DNA of 64,000 bases from an uncultured bacterium. GTDB taxonomy: Bacteria; Oederibacteriota; PGYV01; CAWJRG01. Of the stretch, positions 10,784-31,457 are shown piece by piece; position 1 is the first letter of the stretch; each line of letters begins with the position of its first letter. The DNA is taken from the NCBI GenBank assembly GCA_963845185.1, contig CAWJRG010000009.1, positions 160,001-224,000 on the forward strand. The letters are read 5' to 3'. Both the position numbers and the translations under genes were made by a program. The notes under the pieces were generated by a model, which worked only from the letters and a program-made list of their open reading frames with translations, had not been told where the DNA came from and did not search any database.

Positions 10784-12828
10784 ATGGGGCTAAAAATGAG
10801 GTTTTTAGGAACGTTTTTTTTCGTAATAATTGTTTTTGCCCCTTTTTCGATTTTAAGCCAGGATTTTGGAACAACCACAGGGGAGTTTTTAAAAATAAAT
10901 CCCGATGCCGAAGCAGAAGCAATGGGTGAAGCATATATAGCCCAAGCAGACGGCACAGCAGCTCTCATATATAACCCATCTGGACTTTCACTTCTTGATA
11001 AAGCCGAATTATCCCTAACTGAGTTATTATGGTTTAACAGTCTCTATATAGAACACGCCGCAGTTGCATATCCTTTTAGCCCGGGATTTGCGATAGGCGG
11101 CAGTGTTTTATGGATGGATACCGGAAAATTTGATTCGACCGGATATGCGCAGAACGCAATAAGCATTCAGGACGGGTTTTTTAATTTTGGAATTGGATGC
11201 AGCCTGCTTGATTCACTTCATATCGGCGCGGATGCAAAATTAATTTATGAAAATTACTTTGGCAACGCATCCTTTGGCACATCTTTTGACCTGGCGGGGA
11301 TTGTTAATTTTATAGGGAATAATTTTTCGGGCGGGATCGTAATTAAAAACCTCGGGTTTCTATCAGGTACCACCGATATGCTGCCTTTTGAAGCAGGAGT
11401 AGGACTTAATTATTCGGTTTTTGACGGAACGACAAGGACTTTTTCCATAAATTTGGACGCAGACAAAATACTGAATACTGACAACATTTACGTTGCATTA
11501 GGAGCGGAAACACTTGTTTTTAATGTGCTGGCCCTGAGGCTGGGCGTAAAATACAACAACGCGCTTAATATTGATTTTAATAATATTTCATTTTCGAATA
11601 TTGAAAGCCTAATGATACTTTCAGGCGGATTCGGCATAAACATTGGAAACGCATTTGCCATCGATTATGCTTTTACTCCCATGGGAGAGCTCGGGGCCGT
11701 ACAGCGGGTTACTTTAAAATTCAAATTTGGAGAGTCAATGCGCGAAAAGGCAATGTACGCTAAAGCAAAAGAGGCTGTTGTCGCTCCTAAAAATATGGAA
11801 ATACCGAAGGTTGAAACCTCGCAGGGAAAGATAAAGGAAGTTTCTTTTAAACCGCAGGTACCACAGGAAAATGTAAAGGAATGGAAACTGGAAATTAAGA
11901 CTTCCGACGGCAAGATAGTAAAAACATTCAGCGGAGTTGGCGAGGTGCCGAAAAATATAGCATGGGACGGGACAGACAGCTACGGCAAAATAGCCGCAGC
12001 CGGCGTGGGGTATGTGTACGATTTCAAGGCGAAGAGTACCGAGGGCAAAATTACGGAAAATACTGGCAAGATAACGTCGGCAAATAAATTCAGTTTCATG
12101 GAAGATGAAGTCCGGTATATTCCGGAAAGGAACAAGGAAATACTGGTTGTGCCTTTGACGCTTTTAATTTCGTCCGACAAAGAGGAAAGGAAAAAAGTGC
12201 CTTTTGTCATGGTCAATAAAGAAATAAAAAAGGTAACAGGATGGGAATTCACAATAAAGGACAAGAATGGCGAAATTGTCAGGTCATACAAAGGCAACGG
12301 GGACGTACCTTCTTACCTTGTATGGGACGGTAAAAATATGCAGGGCGAGACGGTACCGGATTCCAAATCCTGTGCGTATACACTTAGCATAAAAGGCGAA
12401 AAAGGGAAGGAAGCCCAAGTAACGAGCCCTGAAATAATGAGGGATCCGTTTACAGCTGCAACCAATACAAAGGTGGTAAAGCTCGCGAAGAAGATATACT
12501 TTGAATTGGATTCCGCTGCAATAGCTCCAGAAATGTATGACAGGCTTTCTCAGATTGCCGCTGAAATCAAGAGTTACGGCGCAACTTCCATATATATCCA
12601 GGGCATTCGAGCAAAGAGGGAGATGAAGCCCATAACCTGGCACTTTCTTACGAAAGGGCAAAAGCTGTTTTGAAATACCTGGTGGAGGTATTAAAAGTCG
12701 AGTCGGAATCAATAAACGCGGTCGGTTACGGTACGGAAATACCTGCGGCAAGCAATGAGACAGAAGAAGGCAAGGCAAAGAACCGAAGGGTTGAAATCGT
12801 CATAATAGCGGAAAAAAACTTCAAATGA
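10784..12828 (+). CDS. PorV/PorQ (UPF0164)-like beta-barrel fused to two FlgD-Ig-like domains and an OmpA_C peptidoglycan-binding domain; one frameshift at ~12601
   Basis: EFLKINPDAEAEAMGEAY...ALIYNPSGL and DYAFTPMGELG (PorV-like); WDGTD and WDGKN; IYFELDS. Adding one G at 12601-12603 restores QGHSS..NLALSYERA..NRRVEI, ending in an ATGA overlap with the next gene (~681 aa). Confidence 0.8.
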
Positions 12829-13877
12829 TTAAAGGTATATTTTTTACAGCGCTCATAACTGGATTTTTGTTTTTGCCGGTTGCCGCTGAGGAAACCCCGG
12901 AGCACATCTATAATATGGCAACGGACGCCATGACAAAAGGCGAAGACGCCGTCGCCATACAGCTTTTTTACAAGGTAACTGAAGAATACCCGAATTTTAA
13001 AAAATACAGGGCCGACGCGCTGTACATGCTAGGGCAGCTCCTTTTTAAGACCGAGCGTTATGACGAAGCGGAAAAAACTTTCAGCACGCTTATTTCCAAA
13101 TATAAAAAGTACCAAAAAATAGACAAGGCTTATGAGTACCTCATTTATATTTATACCGAGGAATTCAACGATAATGAAAAGGCAAAGAAAATAAGGGACC
13201 TGTACGCAAAGGAGTTTGGGACGGACCGCACGCTAACCAATATTGACAGGACCATGGATTTGCTCGACAAGGAGAGGAATTACGATATGCTCAAACTTGA
13301 CGCTTCAAACATGGAGATAAGCAGGTTTGAGGAAGCGACGGATTTCCAGACAGAAATTTTCCCCATCCTTTGCTATAAAAAAGATAAAGCCATGTCGAAC
13401 GACAAATCGATGTCGGTAGAAAGGAAGAAGACGCGGGGCGGCTATTATTTATTTTTAAACTACCCGCGGGGAAAAAATGGAAAAAAAGTACCTGACAGCA
13501 AAAATGGGTACATGCCGCAATGGGCGTGGGACGGCAAGTATGTAATTTTTACTTCCATGAACTGGGATACAATGTTGAGAAGAATAATGCTTTATGACCT
13601 TGAGAAGAACAAGACAAAAGTGATTTTTAGGGCTAAAAAAATAGATCCTCTTTTGTGCTTTTCACCGGATTCATCGAAAATAATTTTTATATTTGAAGGC
13701 AAACTGTGGATAACAAACAGGGATGGAGGCAATATATCAAAGTTAAACAACAAAATTACAGTAAAGGATGCTTTTGTAATGGCATGGGCTAAAGAGGGGG
13801 ATAAGTTATTGCTTAAAGAGGATTTACAAGGCAGCAAATACAAGATTTGTTACCTGACAAAAAGAGAGCTTAAATGA
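12825..13877 (+). CDS. Exported TPR + TolB/PD40-like beta-propeller protein
   Basis: Signal peptide; BamD/CpoB-like TPRs (YPN..ADALYMLG); PQWAWDGKYVIF, FSPDSSKIIF, WAKEGDKL repeats. Confidence 0.75.
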   Translation: MIKGIFFTALITGFLFLPVAAEETPEHIYNMATDAMTKGEDAVAIQLFYKVTEEYPNFKKYRADALYMLGQLLFKTERYDEAEKTFSTLISKYKKYQKIDKAYEYLIYIYTEEFNDNEKAKKIRDLYAKEFGTDRTLTNIDRTMDLLDKERNYDMLKLDASNMEISRFEEATDFQTEIFPILCYKKDKAMSNDKSMSVERKKTRGGYYLFLNYPRGKNGKKVPDSKNGYMPQWAWDGKYVIFTSMNWDTMLRRIMLYDLEKNKTKVIFRAKKIDPLLCFSPDSSKIIFIFEGKLWITNRDGGNISKLNNKITVKDAFVMAWAKEGDKLLLKEDLQGSKYKICYLTKRELK

Positions 13878-13958
13878 TAAAGTAGGTCTATTCAGTGCTC
13901 GAACTGGAATAGGTTTAAATAATAGAAATATTTTGCCGTACATAGAAGGAGGATTTTG

Positions 13959-15833
13959 ATGAAAAAAGTTTCACTAACTTTACTGACTTTAATACTTACA
14001 GCATTATTTGTTGTGCCTGCAGGTATTTTAGCGGATTCCATCGAGGAAAAGAAAAAAGCCTCGGAACTTGACCAGCAGAATGTTATAGCGCGTTATAACC
14101 TGGGCTTTGCATATTATCAGAACGGGCAGGCTGATAACGCAATTGACGTCTTAAAACAAACGCTTGATTTAAACAAAGCTGATAAAGCAGCACACGCGAA
14201 GGTTGATTCAGCGGCAACGCAGATGCTGGGGATACTTTATTTTAACGAAAAACAAAACGATGACGAGGCAATCAACTGGTTTAAAAAAGCGATTGAATTG
14301 ACACCTGGAAGCGGGGACAATTATTATTTTATGGGCCTGGCCATGGCTCGAAAACAAAATTATGAAGAAGCCCTCGCGGCTTTTGATACATCCCTGAAAA
14401 AAGGCACGGAAAACGCTGCTGACGCCAACTTCCGGATAGGCCAGATATGTTACAAAAGGGGGGACGCTGATAAAGCTGAGGCTTACCTTAAAAAAGCGAT
14501 TGAATCAAACCCCAAGAACCAGGAAGCACTTGAACTTCTCGGGATTATTTACCACAAAAAAGGCGACGCTGAAAAGGCAAAAAATATTTTTGAAAAAGTA
14601 GTCAAATTAAACAGCACAGATTTTAACTCGTATTACATACTGGGGCTCAGTTATTATCAGTTGAAGGAATACGATAAAATGATTGGGGCTTATAAAGAAG
14701 CCATAAAGATAAATCCGAATTTTCCGGACGCCCATTATAACCTTGGAATGGCGTATTTTTTCAGGAATATGTACGAGGATGCTATATCTGAGCTTGAAAA
14801 GGCAAAGGAATTGAACCCTTCCGACGCGGCTACCTTTGCCCTTTTGGGGCAGTCGAAGGATGCGGCTTATGATTATCACATGAAAAATGGCGCGACTTTT
14901 ATAACGTCCGAGGAATTCGGCAAGGCAAAGCAGGAACTCGAGCTTGCGCTGAAAGCAAGGGCCGACGACCAGCAGGCTGAGAACCTTCTTTCCTCATTAA
15001 AAGAAATGATAACCAAAGACGTACAGACCAGGAATCCCAAGGCGAAAAAATATTTTAGTGAAAAAAAATACACAGAAGCACTTTATGAATGGCAAGCTGT
15101 ACTGGCTGAAGACCCGGAAAATTCCGAGGCAAAAGACGGAGTGCAAAACATGCCTTCCGGGCTGAAAGATATGGCAAAGGCCAAAGAAAAGAAAGCAAAC
15201 GAGGACATGGCGACAGGAGACCTCGCCGGAGCGCTGAAGGAATATAAAGATGCGGCTTCAAACGCAAAAGATAAAGATAATGTAAAGCACAAGATTTCCA
15301 CAATCCAGACGCAAATAAACAAAAAGATAAAGAACCTGCTTTCAAAAGCGGATAAATCGTATGCTTCGGGCGGGTACAAAGCCGCCCTTGATGACTATAA
15401 CGAAATTTTAAAATATGATGAAAACAATGAAAAAGCACTTGACGGCCTCACCAGGGTTAACGCAAAGATAGAAGATGCCAAGGCCAAATACCTGGATACG
15501 GCAAAAAGAATCAAGTCACAGGATAAGTCAAGAGCGATAAGCCTGCTGAAAAAAGTCCTTGCGCTGGATCCTACAAACGCCGAGGCAAACAAATATATCG
15601 AGGAATTAACAGGCTCGAAATCGGAAATCGCGGCAAATGCGCAGCAGATTAAAAAGCTTTACTATGAAGGCGTGGATAAATACGTAAACGGAGACATAGA
15701 GGATGCAATTAAAATATGGAAAAAAGTTTTAAGCCTGGACCCAAGCTACACCGAAGCCAAGAAAAATATAGGCAGAGCCCAGGAAAAACTCGCGGCCATA
15801 AAGAATTTGACAAATGGAGGGGCTGGACAATGA
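13959..15833 (+). CDS. Exported multi-TPR protein
   Basis: RBS AAGGAGG; signal peptide; many canonical TPRs (e.g. NPNFPDAHYNLGMAY). Confidence 0.9.
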   Translation: MKKVSLTLLTLILTALFVVPAGILADSIEEKKKASELDQQNVIARYNLGFAYYQNGQADNAIDVLKQTLDLNKADKAAHAKVDSAATQMLGILYFNEKQNDDEAINWFKKAIELTPGSGDNYYFMGLAMARKQNYEEALAAFDTSLKKGTENAADANFRIGQICYKRGDADKAEAYLKKAIESNPKNQEALELLGIIYHKKGDAEKAKNIFEKVVKLNSTDFNSYYILGLSYYQLKEYDKMIGAYKEAIKINPNFPDAHYNLGMAYFFRNMYEDAISELEKAKELNPSDAATFALLGQSKDAAYDYHMKNGATFITSEEFGKAKQELELALKARADDQQAENLLSSLKEMITKDVQTRNPKAKKYFSEKKYTEALYEWQAVLAEDPENSEAKDGVQNMPSGLKDMAKAKEKKANEDMATGDLAGALKEYKDAASNAKDKDNVKHKISTIQTQINKKIKNLLSKADKSYASGGYKAALDDYNEILKYDENNEKALDGLTRVNAKIEDAKAKYLDTAKRIKSQDKSRAISLLKKVLALDPTNAEANKYIEELTGSKSEIAANAQQIKKLYYEGVDKYVNGDIEDAIKIWKKVLSLDPSYTEAKKNIGRAQEKLAAIKNLTNGGAGQ

Positions 15834-16846
15834 AAATAACAATTTACGAAGTTGCAAGAAGGGCAGGAGTATCAATATCAACAGCGTCCAAAGCTTTAAA
15901 CGATAAAAAGGATGTAGGCGAAGCAACAAAACAAAAAGTCAGGGAGATAGCCAGGGAATTAAATTATGAACCGTCTCATTTTGCCCGCGCACTGGCCAGG
16001 AGGAAAACGGACAACATCGGGGTAATAACAGTCCGGTATTACAAAGAGCCCATGATTACAAATCCTTTTTACGCTAAAATACTCGAAGGTATTGAAGAAG
16101 AACTGATAAACAGCAACTTGAATCTTCTTACCAATATTTTGAGGAAAGAACAGATGGATTTGCTTGATATACCGAAAATGGTAAAAGAAAAGAGCGTGGA
16201 TGGGATTATCCTTCTTGGCCATATGCCCGAGCCTTTTGTGAGGATGGTGTCTGATAAAGGCCTGCCCGTGGTTATGATAGACAATTATTTTGAAGACGCG
16301 AATATTTCATCCATTATCGCTGACAACGTAGGCGGTGCTTTTTACGCGGTGGAATACCTCGCTAGGACCGGACATAAGAAGATAGCTTACCTGTCAGGAC
16401 CGGCAGCGAGATACAGTTTTAAGCAAAGGGAACAGGGGTTTAGGCAGGCGATGCAAAAATATAACCTGCCTGTTGACGAGAGGTTTGTTATCTTCAACGA
16501 GGGAGAGAACATGTCATACGAATGGATGAAAAAAATACTGGACTACGACGTGAAACCGGATGCGGTATTCACGTGCAACGACATTACCGCGTTAATGGTG
16601 ATAAATATGCTTAAAGACGCGGGGTTAAAGGTTCCCGAGGATATGAGCGTCATGGGTTTTGATAATATAGATATAGCAGGGCACTTTATACCTTCCATTT
16701 CTACGGTTGATGTAAAAAAAGAAGAAATGGGAATAAATGCTGTTAAAAAGCTGCTTAATATAATAAATCAAAATGATACCACAGTGGAAAATATGACATT
16801 TCCGACAAGCATAGTCATAAGGGATTCCACAAAAAAACAAGCATAG
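15830..16846 (+). CDS. LacI-family transcriptional regulator
   Basis: ATGA overlap with the TPR gene; HTH TIYEVARRAGVSISTASKALN, hinge ARALA, VPEDMSVMGFDN. Confidence 0.95.
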   Translation: MKITIYEVARRAGVSISTASKALNDKKDVGEATKQKVREIARELNYEPSHFARALARRKTDNIGVITVRYYKEPMITNPFYAKILEGIEEELINSNLNLLTNILRKEQMDLLDIPKMVKEKSVDGIILLGHMPEPFVRMVSDKGLPVVMIDNYFEDANISSIIADNVGGAFYAVEYLARTGHKKIAYLSGPAARYSFKQREQGFRQAMQKYNLPVDERFVIFNEGENMSYEWMKKILDYDVKPDAVFTCNDITALMVINMLKDAGLKVPEDMSVMGFDNIDIAGHFIPSISTVDVKKEEMGINAVKKLLNIINQNDTTVENMTFPTSIVIRDSTKKQA

Positions 16847-16918
16847 CAGCAAGCTTTATATTACGGAAATTTTTAGTTTTTAGTATTAAATTATTTTTTT
16901 AAAACTTCCGGGTTAAAA

Positions 16919-18163
16919 ATGAAGGAAAATATAAAAAAATATATAACCTACAGTCTGTTTTTATATGCTTTTGTTTCGACAATATCAATAACCCTTGCCG
17001 AAATATTTTTTATTGCAGGGCTGCTGCTGTGGCTGGCTGACGCAATAATAAATAAAAAAGACATAAAAAAAGATTTCCCTGTTTTTATAAGCCTGCCGAT
17101 TCTGTTTTTCATTCTCATACACTTTTTAGCTGCAGTTACAGGGCTTGATCCAATAAGCAGCCTGAAAGATTTCAGAAAAGTATACATTTTTTTAATTCTT
17201 TTTCTTGCCGGAAACTATTTAAAAAACGAGAAAGACATTAAAAAAGCATTCGATTTTTTTGTCGCGGGCGCGGCAATCGTGGGGATATATGCGGTAATTA
17301 CCACAATAAAATTCAGGTACATTGGTCACAACCCGGATTTCAGGGCATCGTCTTTTTCCGGCAACCACATGCATGCAGGCGGCATGCTGATGATGGGATT
17401 AATTGTTAATGCGGCTCTTTTGGCAGGTTTGTTAAAAGACAAAATGAAAAATTTAAAATTGGGCGCGCTATACACTGCTGCATTTGTACTAATTGCGGCA
17501 GGGCTGGCATGCACGGCTACAAGAGGCTCGTGGTTTGCCGCTTTTGCAGGGATATTGATAGTAGCGTTTTTAGCAGACAAAAGGGTGTTTACCGGCGTTA
17601 TTATTTTTGCTTTGTTTGGGCTTTTTCTGATAAGGGACACATCCTATGGAAAACGCATTACTGATACTTTTAAGGTTTATTACGGCACATCCGCAATTGA
17701 AAGGGTTTATATGTGGAAAAGCGGTCTGCAGATAATAAAGGATTACCCTTTACACGGGGTTGGCACGTCTAATTTAGGAAAGGTTTACCCGAAATACAAG
17801 AATAAGGATGCTTTTGAGGCAAACGAAGGCCATTTGCACAACAACCTTATACAGATTGCGGTTATCGACGGAATACCAGGGCTTGGAATATTTTTATGGC
17901 TTTTTACAGCTTTATGGGTTTTTGCAACCGGGTTGATCCGGAAAGCGGCAAAAAGCAGATTGAGATATTTTGCTTTTGCTGTTTTTGCTATAAGCATAGC
18001 GTTTTTTATTAACGGATTTTTTGAGTATAACTTTTTTTCATCACAGGTAGCCACGATATTCTGGTTCATTACGGGCGCAGGCCTGGCAATAAACAACCTT
18101 TTTGCCTCAGGCTGGAAAGAAGAAACTGAGCAGGCCGGGGAAATAACGGCAGCAAAAGAATGA
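16919..18163 (+). CDS. O-antigen ligase (WaaL/Wzy_C) family membrane protein
   Basis: Multi-TM; TATRGSW, ERVYMWKSG, PLHGVG, HLHNNLIQ...GIPG. Confidence 0.85.
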   Translation: MKENIKKYITYSLFLYAFVSTISITLAEIFFIAGLLLWLADAIINKKDIKKDFPVFISLPILFFILIHFLAAVTGLDPISSLKDFRKVYIFLILFLAGNYLKNEKDIKKAFDFFVAGAAIVGIYAVITTIKFRYIGHNPDFRASSFSGNHMHAGGMLMMGLIVNAALLAGLLKDKMKNLKLGALYTAAFVLIAAGLACTATRGSWFAAFAGILIVAFLADKRVFTGVIIFALFGLFLIRDTSYGKRITDTFKVYYGTSAIERVYMWKSGLQIIKDYPLHGVGTSNLGKVYPKYKNKDAFEANEGHLHNNLIQIAVIDGIPGLGIFLWLFTALWVFATGLIRKAAKSRLRYFAFAVFAISIAFFINGFFEYNFFSSQVATIFWFITGAGLAINNLFASGWKEETEQAGEITAAKE

Positions 18164-19215
18164 AAATTGAAATTGATAAATTACACCGCGCTTTGATAAT
18201 CAGGCCGCGGGCCATAGGCGATATATTGCTTACGACGCCTTTCATAAGAGCTTTAAAAAAACGTATCCCCGGCATAAAAATAGACTATTTATGCGAGCCG
18301 ATGGGGTTGCCGATACTTGAAAACAACCCTTATCTGTCAGATGTCATTGTATATGAAAAAAATAAGTTGAAAAAAATGGCTCCTTCTGTCAAAATGATGG
18401 AAACTGCAAGATTTTACAATGGTTTAAGGGCAAGAAAATACGATATTGTTTTCGACCTTTTCGGGAATTTGAGGACCGCCTTAATGAGTTTTTTGACAGG
18501 CGCCAGATACAGAGCCGGATTCACCTTCAGGGGAAGGAAAATCTTTTATAATATTAGGGTAAAACCCGACCGTGCACCAAAGTATAATGTTTATTATCAT
18601 ATGGACCTTCTAAAGGCCATAAACGTGCAGGATGACGGCGAAAAAATGGATTTTTATTTTGGAAATGAAGAAAAAGCATATATCAGCAATTTCTTTAAAA
18701 GCAAGCGCATAAGCGACAAAGACCTGATTGTAGGCATAAATCCGGCGGGTTCATGGCCGACAAAAAGGTGGCCGGAACAAAAATTTTCAACCCTTGCAGA
18801 CAGGATTATTGAGGATTTAAAAGGCGTAAAAATAATAGTGCTGTGGGGTCCAAACGAGGAGGCCATGGCAGAGCTCGTCGTTTCAGGCATAAAAAACGAC
18901 AAGTCAGATGTATATATCGCGCCGGAGACAAGCATAAAGCAGCTTGGCGCGCTGATTGAAAAAATAAAAGTACTTGTAACAAACGACGGCGCTCCAAAAC
19001 ACATAGCAGACGCGCTTGGCACGCCGACAGTAGCCATTTTCGGGCCGACCAATTACAAGTCTTGGAACCCGGCGAACAGCGAGATACATACGGCAGTCAC
19101 AGGCGGGGAGGCCTGCGCGCCGTGCGACAAGACAGAGTGCAGCAATATCAGGTGCATGGAGTCTGTTACGACCGCGGAAGTATTCGGGCATGTGAAGCGG
19201 ATGCTGAAATTATAA
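18160..19215 (+). CDS. GT9 LPS heptosyltransferase family (WaaF/WaaQ-like)
   Basis: AIGDILLTTP, KRWP, VTNDGAPKHIA, PTVAIFGPT, CAPC. Confidence 0.9.
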   Translation: MKIEIDKLHRALIIRPRAIGDILLTTPFIRALKKRIPGIKIDYLCEPMGLPILENNPYLSDVIVYEKNKLKKMAPSVKMMETARFYNGLRARKYDIVFDLFGNLRTALMSFLTGARYRAGFTFRGRKIFYNIRVKPDRAPKYNVYYHMDLLKAINVQDDGEKMDFYFGNEEKAYISNFFKSKRISDKDLIVGINPAGSWPTKRWPEQKFSTLADRIIEDLKGVKIIVLWGPNEEAMAELVVSGIKNDKSDVYIAPETSIKQLGALIEKIKVLVTNDGAPKHIADALGTPTVAIFGPTNYKSWNPANSEIHTAVTGGEACAPCDKTECSNIRCMESVTTAEVFGHVKRMLKL

Positions 19216-19267
19216 ATTTTGGGATCACAACCGGTAATCTAAAATAAAAGACAGGAGGTTTTGCGCC

Positions 19268-19927
19268 ATGGTGGAAGTTGATATAGACAAAATACTTGAA
19301 AACAGCGAGAAAAAAGAAGTCAAGGAAAAGGCAAAATCAAAAACTAAATTTTTCATTATACTGGGAGCCGCAGTTTTAATAGCGGCGGGGATAATTTCGC
19401 TTGTGACAATAACAATTATCGGAGAATCAAGCGCGGCATACATGCCATTTGTCAACGGGGCAAAATACACTTATAACAGGTCGGGCAAAAGCCCTGAGGA
19501 ATGGAACACGATGGAAAAAACAAAGAATATAGACGGTTACGTTTGCCAGGGCATAAACAAGGTCGACAAGGGCACAAACCTTTCATACCAGGATTACTAC
19601 TGTGTGGGCAAGTCCGGCATAGTGCGGATAGCTTATTCCGAGAATTTCGGGCAGATAAAAGAATCGCCTTTCGGGATTCTCCCTGGCAGGATCAAGGCAG
19701 GCAAGGAATTCGAGGCCGGTAATATCAAGGACAAGATAGTTTACGCTAAGATACTGGCAAAGGAGAAAGTATCAACGCCTGTGGGCGTCATAGAAGCGTT
19801 GAAAGTGGAATACAGCGCAGAACCTTATTATCATAAAACAGTCTGGTACGGCAAAGGGATTGGCGTAATAAAAGAAGTGAATGACCTGACCAACGAGGAG
19901 AGGTCAATTATCAACGTGGTGAATTAA
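19268..19927 (+). CDS. Membrane-anchored hypothetical protein (DUF3108/TapB-like beta domain)
   Basis: RBS AGGAGG; one TM segment; VSTPVG...[13 protein letters not shown]. Confidence 0.6.
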
Positions 19928-21564
19928 TGCAGATTAAAAAACAGATTTTCGGAAAGGATTTCATGTTTTACCTTGCGGGGATATGCATATTCCTTACGGT
20001 TGTTTCTTTTTCAATAGTCATCGTAAATATAAAAAGAACCGCGGCAGACAACAACAGCCGTATGGAAGTATATGCGGACGAATACATGAAACTGGCGGCC
20101 GTTTACAATAAGATGACAAATTTCAACGAGACGCTTAAATATGTGGCGTGGCTTAAGCAGGAATACCCAAAGAAGTTTTACTACAAAAATTACGCGGGCA
20201 TAAACGATATAATCGCGCTGGCTTCCAAGCTAAGCGATGAGAATGCCAAAAAGACCATAATGGATTTTACGGCCCCTTACAGGAAATTCGACGTGAACAC
20301 AATACCCCTTAAAGATTTAAGGGAAAAAATAAAAAGCAACATTGCGGTAATAAAAACAGTTGACGGCACTGCAAGCAAAACAGGGGAAGAAATTAGGGCC
20401 CTTGCCGGCCGGGGCGGCAGCGCGGGCATGGTTATGTATCTTTTTTTCCTGGAACTTATAATTGTGCTGGCGCTCAGTATTTGGTCGGTTTTTCATTATT
20501 TGCAGGCAAGCGGGCTGATGAAGAAATTTTTCGAGAGAGATTTTGACATAAGCGGCCTTGACGACGAGTTTTTAAGCGTATTCGACATCGGGGAGGACAA
20601 AAGCAGGTTCTTCAGCAACGTGAAGAAGCTGCGGAACAATTTTTTTGTCATCGGCAACGAGTTTAAGACAATGCAGGAAATGTTCAGGACAATAATAACG
20701 TCGTTTAACGAGGTTTCCAGCACGGCAGATGCGATTTCAAACGCGACGCAGGACCTTTCAAAAAAAGTAACAGGCTACAGCGAGAGCGTAAAAAACACCA
20801 AACAGATTACCGAGAAAATAGCGGATGACATAGAGCAAATCAGGGTTGACACGAACGCAGGCGCGGAAAACAGCAAAAAAATGGATTTGACGGCCAAGGA
20901 AGGCGAGGATTCCATAAACAGCATAATAAACGAGATTAACAATATATACAAAGTGGCCAACGAGCTTGAGCAGGTTGTCCTGCACCTGGGAGGCAAGACC
21001 GTGGAAATAGGAAAGGTTACGACGCTCATAAAAGAAATAGCCGAGCAGACTAACCTTCTCGCGCTTAACGCTTCCATAGAGGCGGCCAGGGCAGGAGAGG
21101 CAGGCAGGGGTTTTGCTGTAGTTGCCGAGGAAATAAGGAAACTCGCCGAATCCACAGCGGGCGCGTCGAAAAAGATAACCGAGGAAATAAAACAGATAAA
21201 CAAGGACATGGATTTTACGGTGAACCAGATAAAAGTCACGACAGACAGCATAAACAAAGGCGTGAACATGGCAAACGAGGCAGGAGTAGCATTTTCAAGA
21301 ATCAAGGAAGTCATAATGGAGACAATGAAAATAACAGGCAGCATATACACCCTCACCGGCGGCGAGGTCGAAAAAATACAAAACATGATCAAGATTATAA
21401 GCGAAGTCGAGGATATCATCGAGGATATGGCTGCAAATATAGAGGAAATATCGGCTTCGATAGAGCAGGAAACCGCAAGCATAGAGAATTTAAAAGCTGT
21501 CACGGACGAGCTTTTCCAGAAATCCGAGAAAATCAAAGCGGTTTTTGATAATCTGAAGATATAG
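19927..21564 (+). CDS. Methyl-accepting chemotaxis protein
   Basis: Two TM segments; [38 protein letters not shown]. Confidence 0.95.
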
Positions 21565-21573
21565 CGCAAAAAA

Positions 21574-24500
21574 GTGAGAAAAAAAAATTCCGCACAAATA
21601 CCCTTTAAGTTTCTGATAATATTATCCTTTCTTTTGCTGCCTCAGATGCTTTTCGCGGCCGGTGAAATGTACCTGGGCTCGGCCGTGCCGCCAACCCCAA
21701 TTGCAACTGCTTCCGGAGTGTCAACACAGGCTTCACCTTCCGCAATATCACCGCAGGCATCGCCTTCAGGCGTATCGGGGTCGGCATCGGGTGTCACAGG
21801 CACGGCAAGCGCCGTCACACAAACCGCGACTTTGGCTTCACTGGGAGCAGAGGACATGACAGGGAACGGCAAAGGCCCGGCGAACTTCAAAGTCCAGGCA
21901 GAAGGCATGAAAATAACCTTAAGCTGGTCCGCCGCACAAGGCGGTACGGACGTGTATTACAATATTTACAGGAGCACAGACCAGGCGAGGGCCGATTTTA
22001 TCAAAATAAACAAAGACGACAGCCTGCAAAGCCTGACATACATAGACAATTCGAAAAACAGCTTTACGCGGCCGAAGCAAAAAATAAAATATTTTTATAA
22101 AGTGGCTTCGCTTGTGCTGGCAAAAGAAACAGGGGAGACCGACATGCTCACGGTCACGCCGACCGGGCCGCTTGTACCGCCGCCGGCCGACAGCATAAGT
22201 TTTAAGGCGGCAGACAAGGAAATCTCGCTTGCTTGGGAAGAGCCGGAGTCAAGCGGCGAATACGACTTAAGCGGGTTTAACGTTTTCAGGTCAACGGACA
22301 GCAGCAATAACGGGAACAAATTAAACGAAGAACTTTTAAAGAAATACACCTATGATGACTTTGGGGAAGCGGACAACCCGCTTGACAACGCAGTAAAATA
22401 CTATTACAAACTGCAGAGCGTGGACTCGGCAGGCAACACGTCGGATTTTTCAGTACAAATCGCGGCTGAGCCGCATGTCAGCATCAGCGAGCCGAAAAAT
22501 GTCACCGCAGCCGTTTCTTCAAACGAAAGCATAAAGCTCGCGTGGGGTTCGCCTGAAGTCAAAGGCACGTTCGGCCTGTCGGGATATAATATTTTCAGGA
22601 GCTCGATAGCCGGAGTTTTTCCCGACCAGCCGATAAACGTAAACTTAAGGCCGGAATACACGGACGACGCGGGGAAAGTATTTTATTTCGACAACATCAT
22701 AAACAGCGTAACGCCCCCGGAAATGGGCGTGACATATTATTACAAGATTCTGCCCATGGACATGAAAGGCAACACAGGCACGCCCAGCGCCGTGATAACC
22801 GCGGGTATAGCGTATTTAAACGTGCCCCAGAGCGGCATTGTTTCGGCTGAAATGTCCCAGTACGGCCTGCCGCCGGAATCGAAACTTACCGTATCGGGCA
22901 TGAAGACCGTGGACCTTTCCTACGGACAGGTCTGGCCAAGCTCGGCTTATTCGACGAACATAGTAAAGGGGTTCCAGCCGAAACAGGAGCTCAGGATAAA
23001 ACTGCAGGGCCAGATAGGCACCAACATACTGGTTGACGTTGACTACGACGACAACGCCGTGGAAGCGGAAAGGAAAAAGATTTCAATAAAGTACCAGGGC
23101 AGCAAGGACGAGACGGTCCAGGAAGCGGCTTTCGGCGACATAACGCTCTCCCTGCCGTCCACAAGGTTTGTCAGCTACAGCCAGTCGCTTTTTGGAATAG
23201 AGGCAAAGGTCAACATCCTGGGCGACAAACTCAGCCTTACAGGCATAGCGGCGCAGACAAAAGGGATTTCTGATGTGCAGACATTCACGGGCAATTTGAG
23301 GTTTTTTGAAGTAAACGGAAAAAGGGGCATTGATATTTATGACACGTCATTCATTGCGAACAAATATTATTACCTCTATAACCCTACCACAAATACCTGG
23401 CCAACGGGATCTTCGGTAGTACCGGGCTCGGTGGTGGTGTACGTAAACGACGAGATAGCGTCGGATGACAATGCCAATACAGTTCACGGCTATGACTTGA
23501 AATTACTGGGCGCGGATTATACCGTGGATTATAAAAACGGCATTATAATGTTTACATCCCCAATGAACGTCTATTACCAGGTGGCAGTAGCATACCTTTA
23601 TACCGACAGCAGCGGAGGCGTCCATAGCGTTGGTTTTAACTCGGCGGGCACAGCAAATCCGGTGCCTGCGAATTTTGAATTCAGCAATCTCAGCAACCTT
23701 TATTGGATACAAAACGGCTTCGGCGATATTTCACATAAGGTCATGAACTATTATTACCTTGGAGCGACCCAGATATATAACCCGTCGTCAGACCCGAATT
23801 TTATAATAAAGATTTATCAAAAAGGAGGCACAAACGAAAATGACCTTCCGCCGCCGAACAGCACCCTTGCTGCGAACTATTATTCGATAGATACATCTTT
23901 CGGCATATTAAAATTCAACAACCAGAACTTCCCGTATCCTTTTGTGCTTGGACAAAACAATTCGCAGATAGCAGTGCCGGTGGGAATTCCCACCGATGGT
24001 TCAGCACCTGCGCCTATAAGCGGGAACGCAGACTGCTATAACCAGTACAGCCCGCAGTCCAATTATTACATGCACGTGGAATTCCAGTATTACGTATCGT
24101 CATATACACTTGACCATTCACCTGTTGTCCTTGGGAGCGAAAAAATTTATATCAATAATGTACTGCAGAAAAAAGACGTTGATTATTACATGTTTTACGA
24201 AACAGGGGAAATTCATTTTTACGACCCGAGCAAAATTCAGCCGAATGACCAGATAACCGTGGCTTATGAATATTCGCCGTTTTTACAGACATACGAGGAC
24301 AATCTGCTCGGAGCCAGGGCAGAGTACAAGATGCTCGACAATTTGTTTTTAGGCTCCACGTTTTTATGGAAAAGCAGCAACACACAGGGGGACCTTGCGC
24401 CTGACGCGCGCTCCACGTCCACTTCGCTGTCAACGCCTTACAGGATGTTCATACTTGACGCCAACGCCATCTATGACCTTGGCAAGGACCAGATAAACCA

Positions 24501-27500
24501 GGCGTTAAGCACTTTGCCTTTTGTCGGGAAAACAGATTTGCCGCTGTCCCTGACTACAAGCGCGGAAATAGCCCAAAGCAATTTCGACATAAATATTTTC
24601 GACAGGAACAATGAAACCGGAGTCGCAATGATAGACAGCATGCAGGGCACGGACAATACATGGCAGACAGTAATGGATTTGAACTCGTCGCCCTCATGGT
24701 TCCCTTCAAGCAAGCCGCTTGCAGTTGACAGCGTGCTTGTGTCGCAGACTACAAGGGTGCCCATAAGGCGCACCAGCAAGCTGGAAATGGGACATTTGTC
24801 AACCCAGGTCGTAAACGGGGCCACAGTGGCTGCCTCGCCCGAAGCGATTCTTACTTACAGTTACAATGGCCTTAATAATCATCAATGGGACGGAATACGA
24901 TATGTTGTTTCGCCCCACGGCCAGGATTTTCACTCGTACAATTACCTTAACATGTGGGTTAATGTCAGCACTGACAACCCGGTAAACCTTTGCGTTGATA
25001 TCGGCATTATGAACGAGGATTCAGTGGGAGACGGGAACCTTTACACAGAGGACCAGGCAGGCAACGGACAATACAATTCAGCGTATGACACAGGGGTCCA
25101 GTGGAAAAACCCTGCAACAGGGCTGTGGCAATACCCGCCGTTTAACGGAGGGGACCAAAACTATTGGGGGGCGGGCAATGGCCAGCTCGATACAGAAGAC
25201 GTAAACGGCAACGGTTCGCTTGACCCGACCGACGCTTATTATGAATATTCGCCTTTTGGCGGTACCATACCGCATCCTGAGTTACAGCTTTCCGGGACAG
25301 GCGGATGGAAAAACATAAAAATACCGCTGAGGGATTTTGCAGCGGCATATAATGTGACCACAGACCCTACTCAGCCGAGTTTCATGTCGTCGGTAGAGTG
25401 CATCAGGGTATGGCTCAGCGGCGCAGGCTCTGCAGGAAGCACGGGATATGTGAAATTTGAGCCAATACAGCTGACAGGCAATTCGTGGCAGCTAGAGGTG
25501 GAACCAAACGCAGTGGACAAGGCAGGTAACTTCATTACCTCGCCTGACACGTCGAAATTAAACGCGGTTACCATAAACCAGAGCACAAACGCGGCCTACC
25601 AGCCCAACAAGGAATTTTTTGATTACCAGACAGCGACAGACCTGCAATCGCAGCAGGCGCTGGAGCTCGATTATAACCTTTCAATCAATGACATGGACAG
25701 CAACACCCAACCTGTATATACGGTTTCGAAAACATTGAGCCAGACTGTAGGGTATGATTATTATTCCTACAACTATTTAAAAGTGGACGTATTTTACGCA
25801 AAAAAAGACCCGACTGCGCACGGCAAGGTGCTTTTCCTGAGGCTCGGCTCAGGCACGAACACGGATATATCGCCGAATTATTACCAGTATAATATCCTGC
25901 TTGACGACGCCGTGCCGACCGACAACAACTGGCACACAGTAACCATAGCGCTTGACGGCTCGGACAAAATGAGGGGCGCACCTGTGGGCATACCGAACCT
26001 GAGGAGCGTGCAGTATATCACAATGGGCATAATAGACCCGAACAGCGTGCCCACGAACAAGACCGTCTGGATAGACAATATCAGGCTTACAGACCCGAAA
26101 CCAAGGGTAGGAACGGCAAAATACGAAAACACCACGGTAAATTACGCGGGTTTAGGGACATTTACCCAGGAATACGAGGAAAGGGATACTGATTTTTATA
26201 CAATAGTGGACGTGGATAACGAGCAGATAAAACCGCATTCTATAAGGAACAGCCTAGATTTTCTGTACACACAGATACCGTTTTTACAGATGGACAACAA
26301 TTACACCAGGCAGATTTATAAAACCGAGGACAAATACAAGGACGACCTTTTATTTACAAACAATTATTTAAATCCCGACACTGACAATAGTACTTTATCC
26401 AACAAAGCAACCTTGAGCCTCATACCCGGGCTTTCCCTTGCTAATAACCTGAGTTTTAGCGGCATGAGAAGCAATTACCTGCCTTATTACTACTACGAGA
26501 CTAATTATTCGCAGGTTTTTACAGAAAGGCCGGTTGCCCAGTACACGGCGCCGACCGAGATTCCGTTGTACGGCGGCGCAAAAATACCGCTGGGCGCGAA
26601 TACCCTGTCAGCCGATGTACTCGTGAAAAAAACAAATGTTACGTATTTTTACCCAATGCCGGTTTCCGCGACAATAAACTGCGCCAATTGCTGGAGCCAG
26701 TTGAACTGGCACAGGGAACAGCTTTATTCATGGAAGGACGCCATCAACGCGAACATATTCACGCTCACGCCTTCATACGCTTTTAAGATTGTGGATGAAG
26801 AGGGAAACCTGGCGAGCAACTACACATATTACCAGAATGACGTAGACAACCATTTTTCCACAAGAGGCAGGACTCTCATGCTGCACAAGGAAAACGCGCC
26901 TGCATTGAGCCTGGCTGTGGCAAAACTCTGGATTTTAAGCCCGAAACTTGATTATTCCTCATCTCAGGTCAGGGATTACAGCCAGGGCACATTAAACGTT
27001 AATAATACCACGGCTTTTTCGAGCGGCCTGGCATTTAGTTCCATCACAAACCAGCTGGTACCGGACGGCACTTATTCGCTGAGGATTAATACAACAGCCA
27101 TGTACAACGACCTGGCGCCATACACGGATTCGACTTATTTGTTTTACAAAATGCCTTTTGAGTCGCAATGGGGAATAAATGAATGGAAAATGCCTTTCGG
27201 CGATAAATTTAAAACCCAGGGCAAAAGTGAAATGTCCTGGTATGAAGACTCGGCAAATACCGACTCGATAACGATTTCGCACAGCATCGGCCTTAGCGCA
27301 GTAAAGCTTTTAAATTACCTGAGCTTTACGCCGCAGCTCACGCTGAGCACGCAGAGAAATGCGAGCAGCAGGCTTTTAAGCGGGCTGCAGTACACGACCA
27401 CCCTTTCCATTACGCCAATCACCATAGGAAAAATAACGCTTATCAAAGGGCTTGTCGAGGACCAGACCATAAGCGGAGGCTATACAAACACCGACAACAA

Positions 27501-28011
27501 AAGCATGGATCCGCAGAACCAGACAAGCGTAAACAGCCACTCGGTCGCGCAGACCGCAAACGTGAACCTGCCTTATTCGGTAAAGGACGGTGTAAGCGGG
27601 GCGCTGGGGCTGACAGGCAACTGGACAAACAACCAGCTGCTGGATGTATCGTCATGGGCATATACTCTTTCGCCGAATTTTACAATCAATTATGTCCTGA
27701 AGCTGGTCAAGCCGGTCCAGATCGCGAATTTTATACCGTGGATAGGAGGCAAGGAAATAAAATTCACCCAGGACATAAACCTGAACGGCACCCTGGGTAT
27801 GGATATGACAAGGGGCGGGGGAGTAGGAGACAACGGAATTAATAAAAAAGATTCCAGTACATACAAGATAAGCGCAAGCGCGGATTATAAATTCCTGCAG
27901 AATGTCGAGGGCCGCCTGACTTTCAGTTATAATAAAAACATAGACATGATACTGAAACAGAACCGCTACGACGCCATAATGATAGATCTTTATTTTAAAG
28001 TGGAATTTTAG
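21574..28011 (+). CDS. sprA: SprA/Sov-like giant outer-membrane translocon with three N-terminal FN3 domains
   Basis: 2145 aa; KLQGQIG..VDYDD..IKYQG..VQEAAFGDITLSLP..SLFGI; DYTVDYKNG, VVLGSEKIYIN..DY; DTEDVNGNGSLD; C-terminal beta-signal YFKVEF. Confidence 0.75.
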   Translation: MRKKNSAQIPFKFLIILSFLLLPQMLFAAGEMYLGSAVPPTPIATASGVSTQASPSAISPQASPSGVSGSASGVTGTASAVTQTATLASLGAEDMTGNGKGPANFKVQAEGMKITLSWSAAQGGTDVYYNIYRSTDQARADFIKINKDDSLQSLTYIDNSKNSFTRPKQKIKYFYKVASLVLAKETGETDMLTVTPTGPLVPPPADSISFKAADKEISLAWEEPESSGEYDLSGFNVFRSTDSSNNGNKLNEELLKKYTYDDFGEADNPLDNAVKYYYKLQSVDSAGNTSDFSVQIAAEPHVSISEPKNVTAAVSSNESIKLAWGSPEVKGTFGLSGYNIFRSSIAGVFPDQPINVNLRPEYTDDAGKVFYFDNIINSVTPPEMGVTYYYKILPMDMKGNTGTPSAVITAGIAYLNVPQSGIVSAEMSQYGLPPESKLTVSGMKTVDLSYGQVWPSSAYSTNIVKGFQPKQELRIKLQGQIGTNILVDVDYDDNAVEAERKKISIKYQGSKDETVQEAAFGDITLSLPSTRFVSYSQSLFGIEAKVNILGDKLSLTGIAAQTKGISDVQTFTGNLRFFEVNGKRGIDIYDTSFIANKYYYLYNPTTNTWPTGSSVVPGSVVVYVNDEIASDDNANTVHGYDLKLLGADYTVDYKNGIIMFTSPMNVYYQVAVAYLYTDSSGGVHSVGFNSAGTANPVPANFEFSNLSNLYWIQNGFGDISHKVMNYYYLGATQIYNPSSDPNFIIKIYQKGGTNENDLPPPNSTLAANYYSIDTSFGILKFNNQNFPYPFVLGQNNSQIAVPVGIPTDGSAPAPISGNADCYNQYSPQSNYYMHVEFQYYVSSYTLDHSPVVLGSEKIYINNVLQKKDVDYYMFYETGEIHFYDPSKIQPNDQITVAYEYSPFLQTYEDNLLGARAEYKMLDNLFLGSTFLWKSSNTQGDLAPDARSTSTSLSTPYRMFILDANAIYDLGKDQINQALSTLPFVGKTDLPLSLTTSAEIAQSNFDINIFDRNNETGVAMIDSMQGTDNTWQTVMDLNSSPSWFPSSKPLAVDSVLVSQTTRVPIRRTSKLEMGHLSTQVVNGATVAASPEAILTYSYNGLNNHQWDGIRYVVSPHGQDFHSYNYLNMWVNVSTDNPVNLCVDIGIMNEDSVGDGNLYTEDQAGNGQYNSAYDTGVQWKNPATGLWQYPPFNGGDQNYWGAGNGQLDTEDVNGNGSLDPTDAYYEYSPFGGTIPHPELQLSGTGGWKNIKIPLRDFAAAYNVTTDPTQPSFMSSVECIRVWLSGAGSAGSTGYVKFEPIQLTGNSWQLEVEPNAVDKAGNFITSPDTSKLNAVTINQSTNAAYQPNKEFFDYQTATDLQSQQALELDYNLSINDMDSNTQPVYTVSKTLSQTVGYDYYSYNYLKVDVFYAKKDPTAHGKVLFLRLGSGTNTDISPNYYQYNILLDDAVPTDNNWHTVTIALDGSDKMRGAPVGIPNLRSVQYITMGIIDPNSVPTNKTVWIDNIRLTDPKPRVGTAKYENTTVNYAGLGTFTQEYEERDTDFYTIVDVDNEQIKPHSIRNSLDFLYTQIPFLQMDNNYTRQIYKTEDKYKDDLLFTNNYLNPDTDNSTLSNKATLSLIPGLSLANNLSFSGMRSNYLPYYYYETNYSQVFTERPVAQYTAPTEIPLYGGAKIPLGANTLSADVLVKKTNVTYFYPMPVSATINCANCWSQLNWHREQLYSWKDAINANIFTLTPSYAFKIVDEEGNLASNYTYYQNDVDNHFSTRGRTLMLHKENAPALSLAVAKLWILSPKLDYSSSQVRDYSQGTLNVNNTTAFSSGLAFSSITNQLVPDGTYSLRINTTAMYNDLAPYTDSTYLFYKMPFESQWGINEWKMPFGDKFKTQGKSEMSWYEDSANTDSITISHSIGLSAVKLLNYLSFTPQLTLSTQRNASSRLLSGLQYTTTLSITPITIGKITLIKGLVEDQTISGGYTNTDNKSMDPQNQTSVNSHSVAQTANVNLPYSVKDGVSGALGLTGNWTNNQLLDVSSWAYTLSPNFTINYVLKLVKPVQIANFIPWIGGKEIKFTQDINLNGTLGMDMTRGGGVGDNGINKKDSSTYKISASADYKFLQNVEGRLTFSYNKNIDMILKQNRYDAIMIDLYFKVEF

Positions 28012-28046
28012 TATAATTTTTTTTAAATATCAGGAGGACTTTTTAA

Positions 28047-31000: not shown

Positions 31001-31457
31001 TGCAAATACCAGTTTTACAGACTATACCACGGCGTGGGGTAGTGATTATCTTTACGAAATTATTGCCATGGACACGGCAGGAAACCTTGACGCAATATAC
31101 CCGGTTATGTCAAAAGGCATACCAAAGACAGCCAATAAATTAATGATATACGCGAATATGATTAATTTAAGCAAGAGCCAGGCATTGACATGGAATTACG
31201 AAGTCATAAGGTCGGACAACATGAAAGTGATTGTTTATACCTTAAGCGGGCAGATGGTAAAAAAATTGTTTGACGGCAGCCCGCCATCCGGCGCTGACCC
31301 GGGCAATCCGCTTGACGGGTGGTCAGGCCAACCGCCACCCGGTTTTATCTGGGACGGAAAAAATTCATACGGCCAAAAAGTGGCGTCCGGAGCATATATA
31401 ATAATGATGGAATTCAAGGACTGGAAAACAACGTATAAAGTGGCGGTTGTAAAGTAG
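28047..31457 (+). CDS. Secreted protein with ten FN3 repeats and a FlgD-Ig/T9SS-type C-terminal domain
   Basis: RBS AGGAGG; signal peptide; ten Y(N/E/A)(I/V)YR motifs; ends VYTLSGQMVKKL...WDGKNSYGQKVASGAYII...KVAVVK. Confidence 0.85.
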   Translation: MKKTLLTLVLLAATAAFALAVDPPANFVLTYPGSGSLQLNWYASDTYTGIGYNIYRSIGDTSNFSLLTATANTTYTDTTDTAQTYYYYIEAFDSNNNKSTITQIMPSRPYPPMSVAITPYNAKIYLEWNNSIESDSSTYNIYRSSTDNVEYSLLPATGNDYIDSPVLNALTYIYKIAATNPSGPYSITLPASVTVSAQGPYSAPVSAVPYSAPFAPLGISSGLSTTQNTMYLSWAQTNTAGTFETTYYEIYRSTYDMMPGPATFDAYDTFPFPAPQTYTVTNTYYYNPMTPGVNNYFSIYTVDSMGNFSLPASGYVYDPIQSMPLAPTGLTITSSNLTGVSLAWAANPSADNVTQYAVYRGTTLAAQALYVTVAAASFTDTTITAGLFYDYSIVASNAFGSGTNSYNVSATVLPVAPANFKALYNNITYTPGIGVNLTWTQGSSNDNITQYNVYRTTNLSNLIPQPVITPIIIYQGTTYTVSYSYADISITTGNIYYYAATALTTSSVQSLESAIICVTVTTLPAQPQNLTGTAYDSYNTLNWAPNNTADLVSVYNVYRWTTPTSIANITATALTNYLDANLNTSTTYYYTVAALNNIGEGPRAVTITLEPASNIPPHTPVLSASCNGLGQIVLSWDQDPAPGIYYNVYRAISTSAEAWLNSTNANTTTYIDSVMNPTSVSSVANISTVYSYNVGASNTITGYSSFSNTATASAFVGPNSSTLQHIVFTNVSGNVLITWDNPNTICSYSLTGYNIYRSTTTAVINGNNEPVFSPMPITNLAYPANNYLDTGLNANTTYYYEVQLVDSAGNSYTSTYTGFYVDSVLPPPPEVVAISQPSQVTLEWRLINASIISYNIYRRTASGVYTSAIYSEKNALKSQYTDADVIPKTTYYYTVAAVNDAGEGPKSQEVFATPYLPLLVPANSGEAINIINKKDISLSWAQAVSVTVDSKGNTYMSSFGISGYNVYRSNDNGGTYTCITFLAGAANTSFTDYTTAWGSDYLYEIIAMDTAGNLDAIYPVMSKGIPKTANKLMIYANMINLSKSQALTWNYEVIRSDNMKVIVYTLSGQMVKKLFDGSPPSGADPGNPLDGWSGQPPPGFIWDGKNSYGQKVASGAYIIMMEFKDWKTTYKVAVVK

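Follow-up and report, generated by a model that had tools for sequence, protein, structure and literature searches.

In the type IX system for protein secretion (T9SS) of Bacteroidota, the substrate has been resolved on its carrier inside the translocon, and transport needs the GldLM/PorLM motor, the energy-requiring step being the release of the carrier-substrate complex from SprA (Lauber 2024). TXSScan detected the system in 60 of 97 Bacteroidetes genomes and in none elsewhere, and reviews confine it to Bacteroidota or to the Fibrobacterota-Chlorobiota-Bacteroidota (FCB) superphylum (Rocha et al. 2024 and others). Cargo with a C-terminal domain (CTD) of type B is held at the cell surface by a dedicated outer-membrane barrel, as in the PorE-PorP complex of Porphyromonas gingivalis or the SprF-SprB pair of Flavobacterium johnsoniae (Gorasia et al. 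2022), and PorE itself consists of tetratricopeptide repeats (TPR), a beta-propeller, an Ig-like CRD and OmpA_C (Heath et al. 2016). The parts of the Bacteroidota system further include SprA/Sov as translocon, the PorV carrier, cargo with type A CTDs, the PorKN ring and an attachment complex of PorU, PorZ and PorQ. Here we describe the T9SS-like genes in a stretch of 64,000 nucleotides from an uncultured bacterium (the window; positions 160,001 to 224,000 of the forward strand of contig CAWJRG010000009.1, C9 below) and in the genome to which it belongs. The window codes for a giant SprA-like protein, and the genome probably encodes a stripped-down, motor-less T9SS variant with one carrier per cargo, in which a SprA-type pore, PorV-family carriers and cargo with type A CTDs would act together.

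With the Bacteroidota T9SS this genome shares a homologous giant SprA-type outer-membrane protein, barrels of the PorV/PorQ family, large secreted proteins, glycoside hydrolases and peptidases among them, that end in a TIGR04183/PF18962 CTD, and a predicted contact between CTD and barrel as in the solved substrate-carrier complex. It differs from that system in its host phylum, which lies outside the FCB superphylum, in the failure to detect GldK, GldL, GldM, GldN, PorP or a PorU-grade sortase, in the number of its PorV paralogues (about 37 in 3.5 Mb), most of which each have one cargo gene as partner, and in the three N-terminal FN3 domains of its SprA-like protein. A preliminary description of positions 10784-31457 of the window had taken this part for one rearranged T9SS locus and had suggested a distinct, possibly minimal T9SS variant. 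The claim at the level of the locus is only partly right, and the variant is not seen as a single locus; the interesting part is the inference at the level of the genome, where a SprA homologue, barrels and CTD cargo are present and motor and sortase were undetected.

SprA-like protein, carrier barrels and cargo of the genome

The genome comprises 3.50 Mb in 11 contigs and is 99.4% complete. In a set of contigs with one genome per species, the SprA-like protein has relatives under the labels Candidatus Goldbacteria/Goldiibacteriota, candidate division FCPU426, Firestonebacteria and Elusimicrobia/Endomicrobiales, and no Bacteroidota record was returned. FCPU426 corresponds to Goldbacteria, a lineage discovered through cellulose binding, with Firestonebacteria and Elusimicrobia as sibling clades and with flagella and cellulases of its own (Doud 2019). 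The present genome contains flagellar genes (MotAB, FliM and FlgE-type) and encodes GH5 and GH8 cellulases. Judged from these sequences the host is Goldbacteria/FCPU426-like and lies outside the FCB superphylum, in agreement with the earlier suggestion of a non-Bacteroidota host. Some public metagenome-assembled genomes with a SprA-like gene carry the labels Methylomirabilis, Spirochaetia, proteobacterium, Clostridia or Ignavibacteria (L020, L022, L023, L056, L059 and L071); these labels look wrong, because the phylum sampled around the one labelled 'Ignavibacteria' consists of genomes of 1-3.3 Mb without GldL. Searches of the literature gave no paper in which T9SS is connected with Goldbacteria, FCPU426, Firestonebacteria, Elusimicrobia, Elusimicrobium or Endomicrobium. 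In the main text of the Goldbacteria paper (Doud 2019) secretion is not taken up, and type IX appears in the reference list only.

The assignment of the 2145-aa product as SprA-like was confirmed by several comparisons besides the TIGR04189 match (Table 1). A profile of 20 members of the SprA-like family matched F. johnsoniae SprA (PDB 6h3i) with E 1.1e-36, and the profile without the FN3 part matched SprA residues 166-266 and 580-1674 (E 9.3e-32). An hhalign comparison of the family with nine true SprAs from metagenome contigs gave a probability of 100 and E 2.9e-54 over 972 columns. From the N-terminus, the protein is composed of a signal peptide, a Ser/Ala/Thr/Pro linker, the three FN3 domains and the SprA-homologous region, for which a barrel of about 36 strands would be expected. 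The gene is present in a single copy in the genome, as determined by profile search, and it was found in 40 of the 41 genomes sampled from the same GTDB phylum, representing 35 of 35 genera. The homology to the T9SS translocon is robust, and the protein presumably acts as a translocon.

Potential cargo is abundant. The CTD model TIGR04183 gave 88 matches in the genome, 84 of them over the cut-off; 84 of the 88 stop no more than 60 nt from the end of the open reading frame (ORF). A hidden Markov model (HMM) built from the genome's own tails identified C-terminal CTDs in 145 of 2804 ORFs, including those at 5291-10225, 28047-31457 and 54304-58968 of the window. The cargo with CTDs includes GH5 and GH8 cellulases, in support of the earlier proposal of polysaccharide-degrading cargo. 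For the carriers, NF033709 (PorV_fam) gave 40 matches, corresponding to 36 ORFs and one frameshifted gene, and 29 places meet the model. Three architectures were observed: the barrel only, the barrel with TPR, and the barrel with Ig and OmpA domains.

The barrel genes are closely associated with the cargo genes. As many as 25 of the 36 PorV-family ORFs have a CTD ORF, defined by the genome's own HMM, as the same-strand upstream neighbour, against 1.67 +/- 1.25 (maximum 7) in 2000 random gene sets; with TIGR04183 alone, a CTD ORF was located immediately upstream of 16 of the 36 barrels. PorV_fam matches were found in all 8 relatives (11-42 each) and CTDs in all 5 relatives, and 23 of 56 CTD matches in relatives lie, as counted by eye, within about 700 nt upstream of a same-strand PorV match. 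A contact was predicted by co-folding one barrel, residues 21-345 of the product of C9:496542-497798, with the C-terminal 99 residues of the cargo encoded upstream of it: the ipSAE was 0.90, the best of 3 controls reached 0.00, at least 93% of the contacts are shared between runs, and the pLDDT of the partner was at least 83. In the benchmark, 51 of 78 solved complexes attained this ipSAE mark, as did 2 of 108 mismatched pairs. Because a like complex has already been solved (Lauber 2024), the result may reflect likeness to the solved substrate-carrier complex and not this pair.

Motor, ring and sortase

None of GldKLMN, PorU and PorZ lies within the window, as the preliminary description had stated. 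In the whole genome, no match was obtained for GldL (TIGR03513), GldM (TIGR03517 and PF12081), GldN or PorP/SprF (TIGR03519). GldL was found in 0 of 8 relatives and in 0 of 31 genomes in the phylum of G007, a relative with an Elusimicrobia-type SprA-like gene that is labelled Ignavibacteria and whose phylum behaved like Elusimicrobiota; GldM was detected in none of the 41 genomes from the host's own GTDB phylum. The GldK model matched five generic FGE-sulfatase proteins with at most 45 bits (cut-off 350). A gldKLMN operon hidden beside these FGE-sulfatase genes was rejected, as direct hmmscan of 43 surrounding ORFs gave no GldL, GldM or GldN. Membrane topology likewise failed to reveal a GldL/GldM pair: of 13 GldL-like ORFs none precedes a GldM-like gene, the sole candidate being a LiaF-like protein followed by GH8 and GH5 enzymes. 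Two group II intron reverse transcriptase/maturase genes with near-identical scores (E about 2e-109) were noticed at L087:3792-5204 and L091:7708-9069, each close to a gene of the FGE-sulfatase family.

For the PorU sortase, the genome's matches to NF033707 fall almost all on the CTD part of the model. Two Peptidase_C25 proteins are encoded. One of them reaches 65 bits with the PorU model (cut-off 420), and its counterpart is without an NCBIfam match; as to their domains, one carries CBM3 and a CTD, whereas a C25 propeptide is present in the second, which is encoded near a CTD protein with a Kelch propeller. The two C25 peptidases were not supported as a conserved PorU, since they fail the PorU cut-off and the family occurs in only 1 of 8 relatives. 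At L095 (C9:82001-100000), located upstream of the window by about 60-78 kb, a cluster codes in this order for a CTD protein of small size, a protein of the TMEM260-like/TPR type, a 1216-aa protein with Propeptide_C25, Peptidase_C25 and CarboxypepD_reg, an overlapping 918-aa protein without family and a 1098-aa Kelch beta-propeller protein with CTD; the pair of C25 peptidase and propeller-CTD protein recalls PorU and PorZ.

Besides flagellar MotAB, the genome contains three ExbB/TonB-type loci, in one of which a frameshifted ExbB gene is located about 4 kb from a frameshifted PorV-like gene. The case for an ExbB/TonB system as the energiser is suggestive at most. At L098 (C9:134001-148000), a frameshifted PorV-like gene (C9:136588-137387), an ORF with an Ig domain, a 642-aa TPR protein and a frameshifted MotA/ExbB gene (C9:141658-142003) lie within about 5 kb. 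In the relative G004, at least 4 of 7 ExbB-family genes are located within 5 kb of a PorV or CTD match, as judged by eye. An IS-type transposase pair (HTH_Tnp_1 and rve integrase) was found at L100:2715-3880 (C5:467715-468880), between TMEM260-like and TPR genes and beside an ExbB-ExbD-TonB operon.

The absence of the motor from these sequences is strongly suggested, not proven, because the Gld models had no positive control: the Gld and PorU models matched 0 of 14 control genomes, none of which is known to have a T9SS. This lack of a control would leave room for a complete canonical T9SS, the motor, ring and sortase of which lie in unassembled DNA or have diverged beyond the reach of the TIGRFAM, Pfam and NCBIfam models, and the SprA-like and PorV-like proteins are themselves divergent and below the equivalog cut-offs; the presence of the five FGE-sulfatase proteins, which have the PorK fold, and of the two C25 peptidases would fit such a system. 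We consider a complete canonical system quite improbable, in view of the near-completeness of the assembly and the count in related genomes beyond the host itself (GldM 0 of 41, GldL 0 of 39), from which the same kind of search recovered the divergent SprA-like gene in 40 of 41. The lack of GldL, GldM or GldN beside any FGE gene, the lack of any gene pair with GldL/GldM topology and the rarity of C25 peptidases among the relatives point in the same direction.

Proposed route of export and display

In the motor-less variant that we favor, cargo would cross the inner membrane via Sec, and its CTD would be captured by a PorV-like carrier, in most cases the product of the next gene downstream, by docking on the barrel's extracellular loops as seen in the solved translocon. 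The cargo would then pass the outer membrane through the SprA-like pore and stay bound to the surface, non-covalently, on its own barrel. Such retention would resemble that of type B cargo on PorP-like barrels (Gorasia et al. 2022) and not the PorU-dependent ligation to A-type lipopolysaccharide (A-LPS). Some of the barrels, including that of the window, may be tied to peptidoglycan through the OmpA domain fused to them, with a TolB/CpoB-like protein as partner. Because neither the GldLM/PorLM motor nor the PorKN ring, and neither PorP nor a conserved PorU sortase, appears to be present, the energy-requiring step of the Bacteroidota system would have to be solved differently or be absent.

A wider proposal, to which we give slightly less than an even chance, is that the SprA pore, together with PorV-type carriers and CTD tags, constitutes an ancient module for export and display at the outer membrane, self-sufficient and common to Goldbacteria, Firestonebacteria and Elusimicrobia, that operates without the GldLM/PorKN rotary machinery, each cargo having its own carrier and anchor barrel. 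Motor, ring and sortase of Bacteroidota would be later additions, or release would be driven in another way, for instance by one of the three ExbB/TonB-type systems.

Several points weigh against the motor-less variant. The SprA-like protein stays just under the equivalog cut-off of TIGR04189 (183.7 against 200 bits), and only its first two thirds align to SprA. No PorV paralogue among the 8 scanned reaches an equivalog cut-off, the best scores being 89 against 250 for PorV and 128.5 against 220 for PorQ, and the window's own copy scores 23.7. This copy is, in addition, frameshifted, which could be an assembly error or a real pseudogene. The SprA-like gene is tied to the pairs of cargo and barrel by co-occurrence alone, its own neighbors being LPS and housekeeping genes. 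Very divergent motor genes could have been missed by models that lack a positive control, and the two Peptidase_C25 proteins could act as a PorU-like sortase. Finally, the first two genes of the ten-gene stretch may, from their predicted domains, be read equally well as a Tol-Pal-like tether of the envelope.

If the variant exists as proposed, a natural minimal T9SS would be represented by a set of non-FCB phyla in which motor, ring and sortase seem to be missing while pore, carriers and cargo tags are kept. What pore and carrier do alone, how cargo is anchored without ligation to A-LPS and which T9SS parts are ancestral would thereby become testable questions. The variant would also explain how the cellulose-binding Goldbacteria display large cellulases and adhesin-like proteins on their surface.

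The ten-gene stretch and its gene context

The genes of the window are listed in Table 1. The stretch at 10784-31457 consists of ten co-oriented ORFs behind a consensus promoter, as had been noted, and translational coupling is indicated by start/stop overlaps at 18160/18163 and 19927/19927; gaps of 9 and 35 nt flank the SprA-like gene. Promoter-like sites are not in excess in the region (26 found, against 25.5 +/- 5.7 in shuffles), and one with 11/12 agreement is located inside the cluster, at 14298. The TPR-propeller protein, the multi-TPR protein and the FN3 protein with CTD were all recovered as described before. The two genes upstream had been described as CTD-bearing glycanases: their CTDs were confirmed, and a glycanase domain was found neither by Pfam, applied to both, nor by NCBIfam, applied to 5291-10225. 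ORF 11-5104 has no Pfam family besides Por_Secre_tail, and the body of 5291-10225 has no Pfam or NCBIfam family; clusters of GH26, GH53 and GH10 with CTD in the ESM Atlas (scores 0.76-0.78) are a lead only for the latter.

Table 1. T9SS-like and neighboring features of the window. Positions are counted from the first letter of the window; those preceded by C9 refer to the contig.
Position	Strand	Feature	Evidence and remarks
2..5104	+	3' part of 1866-aa CTD cargo gene	C-terminal Por_Secre_tail (PF18962, E 2.6e-9); TIGR04183 match C9:164853-165074; gene begins 496 nt upstream of the window
5291..10225	+	CTD cargo gene, 1644 aa	directly upstream of PorV-like gene; genome-specific CTD HMM E 4.7e-8, residues 1552-1644
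10655..10683	+	sigma-70-type promoter-like site	TTGACA, 17 nt, TATAAT, 12/12; extended TG before -10; about 100 nt before first ATG
10784..12673	+	PorV/PorQ-family barrel, two Ig-like domains and first part of OmpA domain, 629 aa	NF033709 103.4 bits (cut-off 90); FlgD_ig E 2.3e-11
12589..12828	+	remainder of OmpA domain, other frame	PF00691 positions 38-98, E 2.2e-13; its TGA overlaps ATG of next gene
12825..13877	+	CpoB/YbgF-type TPR and TolB/DPPIV-like partial beta-propeller, predicted periplasmic, 350 aa	YbgF E 1.5e-11, TolB E 1.5e-5 (NCBIfam)
13956..15833	+	multi-TPR protein, 625 aa	TPR_2 E 1.3e-52 and many other TPR families (Pfam)
15716..16846	+	LacI-family regulator, 376 aa	Peripla_BP_3 E 9.2e-37, LacI E 6.6e-17
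16919..18163	+	Wzy_C/O-antigen-ligase-like membrane protein, 414 aa	Wzy_C E 6.6e-19
18160..19215	+	GT9 heptosyltransferase, 351 aa	Glyco_transf_9 E 5.1e-42
19268..19927	+	bitopic inner-membrane protein with periplasmic open beta-barrel (predicted), 219 aa	single transmembrane helix; no Pfam/NCBIfam family; AF2 pLDDT 86.6
19927..21564	+	methyl-accepting chemotaxis protein (MCP), 545 aa	MCPsignal E 4.8e-39; two transmembrane helices, periplasmic sensor, MCP signalling domain
21574..28011	+	SprA-like giant outer-membrane protein, 2145 aa	TIGR04189 E 3.6e-54, 183.7 bits
28047..31457	+	FN3-repeat protein with T9SS-type CTD, 1136 aa	fn3 E 3e-19; about 9-10 FN3 repeats; own CTD HMM E 2.3e-11 at 1036-1136
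54304..58968	+	further CTD cargo gene, 1554 aa	TIGR04183 E 4.3e-10 at C9:218708-218923; own CTD HMM E 1.5e-35

Only 2-4 of the ten genes are T9SS-like, and four, those for the LacI regulator, the O-antigen-ligase-like protein, the heptosyltransferase and the chemoreceptor, are unrelated to secretion; the preliminary description leaves these four unmentioned and holds for the other six. The gene order was compared by blast of the window proteins against 68 related loci. The order from the PorV-like gene through the SprA-like gene to mutL, miaA and a major facilitator superfamily (MFS) gene is kept in about 10-16 loci of the Goldbacteria clade, with 30-66% protein identity. In distant relatives (other FCPU426, Firestonebacteria and Elusimicrobia), the SprA-like gene is divergent from an lptF/lptG pair and located upstream of a ComF-like gene and of the genes gap and pgk; members of the LptF/LptG family were found in 37 loci, where they nearly always form a divergent pair that lies just upstream of this gene for the SprA-like protein. 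Because the context of the SprA-like gene thus differs in distant relatives, the ten-gene stretch is a conserved neighborhood in which T9SS-like genes are mixed with LPS-core, regulatory and chemotaxis genes, and not a dedicated secretion operon.

The perfect promoter, the common orientation with several starts overlapping the preceding stop, and the order kept among relatives could be taken as signs of a single operon for a rearranged minimal T9SS, for which the 219-aa protein, the MCP and the TPR proteins would supply a new energising or scaffold module. A single operon of this kind is nevertheless highly improbable: genes for a LacI regulator, for the LPS core and for a chemoreceptor of ordinary type belong to the cluster, it contains further promoter-like sites such as that at 14298, it encodes no motor-type protein, and its order continues into mutL, miaA and the MFS gene, so that it looks like the inherited synteny of a narrow clade, the same SprA-like gene having another context in distant relatives. 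The 219-aa protein and the MCP were also considered as analogues of GldL and GldM, and were rejected for a topology unlike that of GldL/GldM and a strong MCP signalling domain.

Except for two neighbors, no gene of the stretch tracks the SprA-like gene more widely. The FN3 protein with CTD, directly downstream, has full-length orthologues in 12 loci (30-33% identity) and matches over about 850-900 residues in three more distant loci; its alignment is that of FN3 units arranged as beads on a string followed by the CTD. The 219-aa protein, just upstream, is confined to the Goldbacteria clade, with matches in 16 loci, and shows weak Foldseek matches to open barrels of the YmcC-like, RseB/MucB and LolA types (TMq 0.39-0.41). 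A link of the SprA-like gene with LPS genes recurs: lptF/lptG in distant relatives (L038-L086, e.g. L079:7249-9422), and the O-antigen-ligase-like and heptosyltransferase genes in the window.

This context bears on the possibility that the pairs of cargo CTD and PorV-like barrel achieve surface display autonomously, the SprA-like protein serving another part of envelope biogenesis such as LPS or lipoprotein traffic. The SprA-like gene never adjoins the pairs of cargo and barrel, it has lptF/lptG as neighbors in distant relatives and O-antigen-ligase-like and heptosyltransferase genes nearby in the window, and the weak match of its conserved 219-aa neighbor would suggest a LolA/RseB-like fold. 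Autonomous display is unlikely, however, in view of the strong homology to the SprA translocon, of the role of PorV as a carrier working inside SprA in the solved system (Lauber 2024), and of the CTD cargo gene conserved immediately downstream of the SprA-like gene. A 14-strand barrel of the FadL type would hardly pass folded cargo with a median of about 900 aa. A separate LptD homologue is, moreover, encoded at C9:807134-809362 (E 4.5e-47). This 742-aa protein was found through an LptD-like ORF of Firestonebacteria, and a replacement of LptD by the SprA-like protein, as the lptFG adjacency might suggest, was rejected on its account. Matches to PF04453 were weak (2 of 9 genomes).

In the first gene of the stretch, the PorV-like barrel fusion of the preliminary description was verified, together with two Ig domains of the FlgD_ig type. 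The gene is frameshifted inside the OmpA domain, the second half of which is read in another frame, and its orthologues of 684-771 aa are intact, with barrel, Ig and a complete OmpA domain (E about 1e-20). The frameshift adjoins an (AT)4 run; intact orthologues include those in L022, L029 and L031. The 350-aa product of the second gene was predicted by AlphaFold2 with a pLDDT of 87.3, and Foldseek matched it to the TPR domain of YbgF (2xev, TMt 0.83) and to TolB chains (E about 1.5e-7); its match to the PorW/SprE model is weak and of a generic TPR type (E 6.8e-6, 25 bits, cut-off 250). At alignment position 14, a lipobox-like Cys is present in at least 90% of 11 aligned sequences and is replaced by Phe in the window's copy, and the window's protein may thus not be lipidated.

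The two genes can be compared with two tethers. As in the PorE complex, the wall tether of which combines TPR, beta-propeller, Ig-like and OmpA_C domains, the two genes carry the same set, directly after a CTD cargo gene. Unlike that complex, the barrel belongs to the PorV/PorQ family and not to PorP/SprF, the CTDs are of type A, and the domains that make up a single lipoprotein in PorE (PG1058) are here shared out between two genes, together with a barrel of the PorV type; no match to a PorE model was seen. Likeness to Tol-Pal lies in the YbgF-type TPR and the TolB-like propeller part of the second gene and in the Pal/OmpA-type peptidoglycan-binding domain at the end of the first, the two genes overlapping by ATGA. 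In contrast to Tol-Pal, the OmpA domain is fused to a PorV-type barrel instead of a lipoprotein anchor, the propeller is partial (about 200 residues), tolQRA genes are not adjacent, and paralogues with barrel, Ig and OmpA are found behind CTD cargo genes at other places in the genome.

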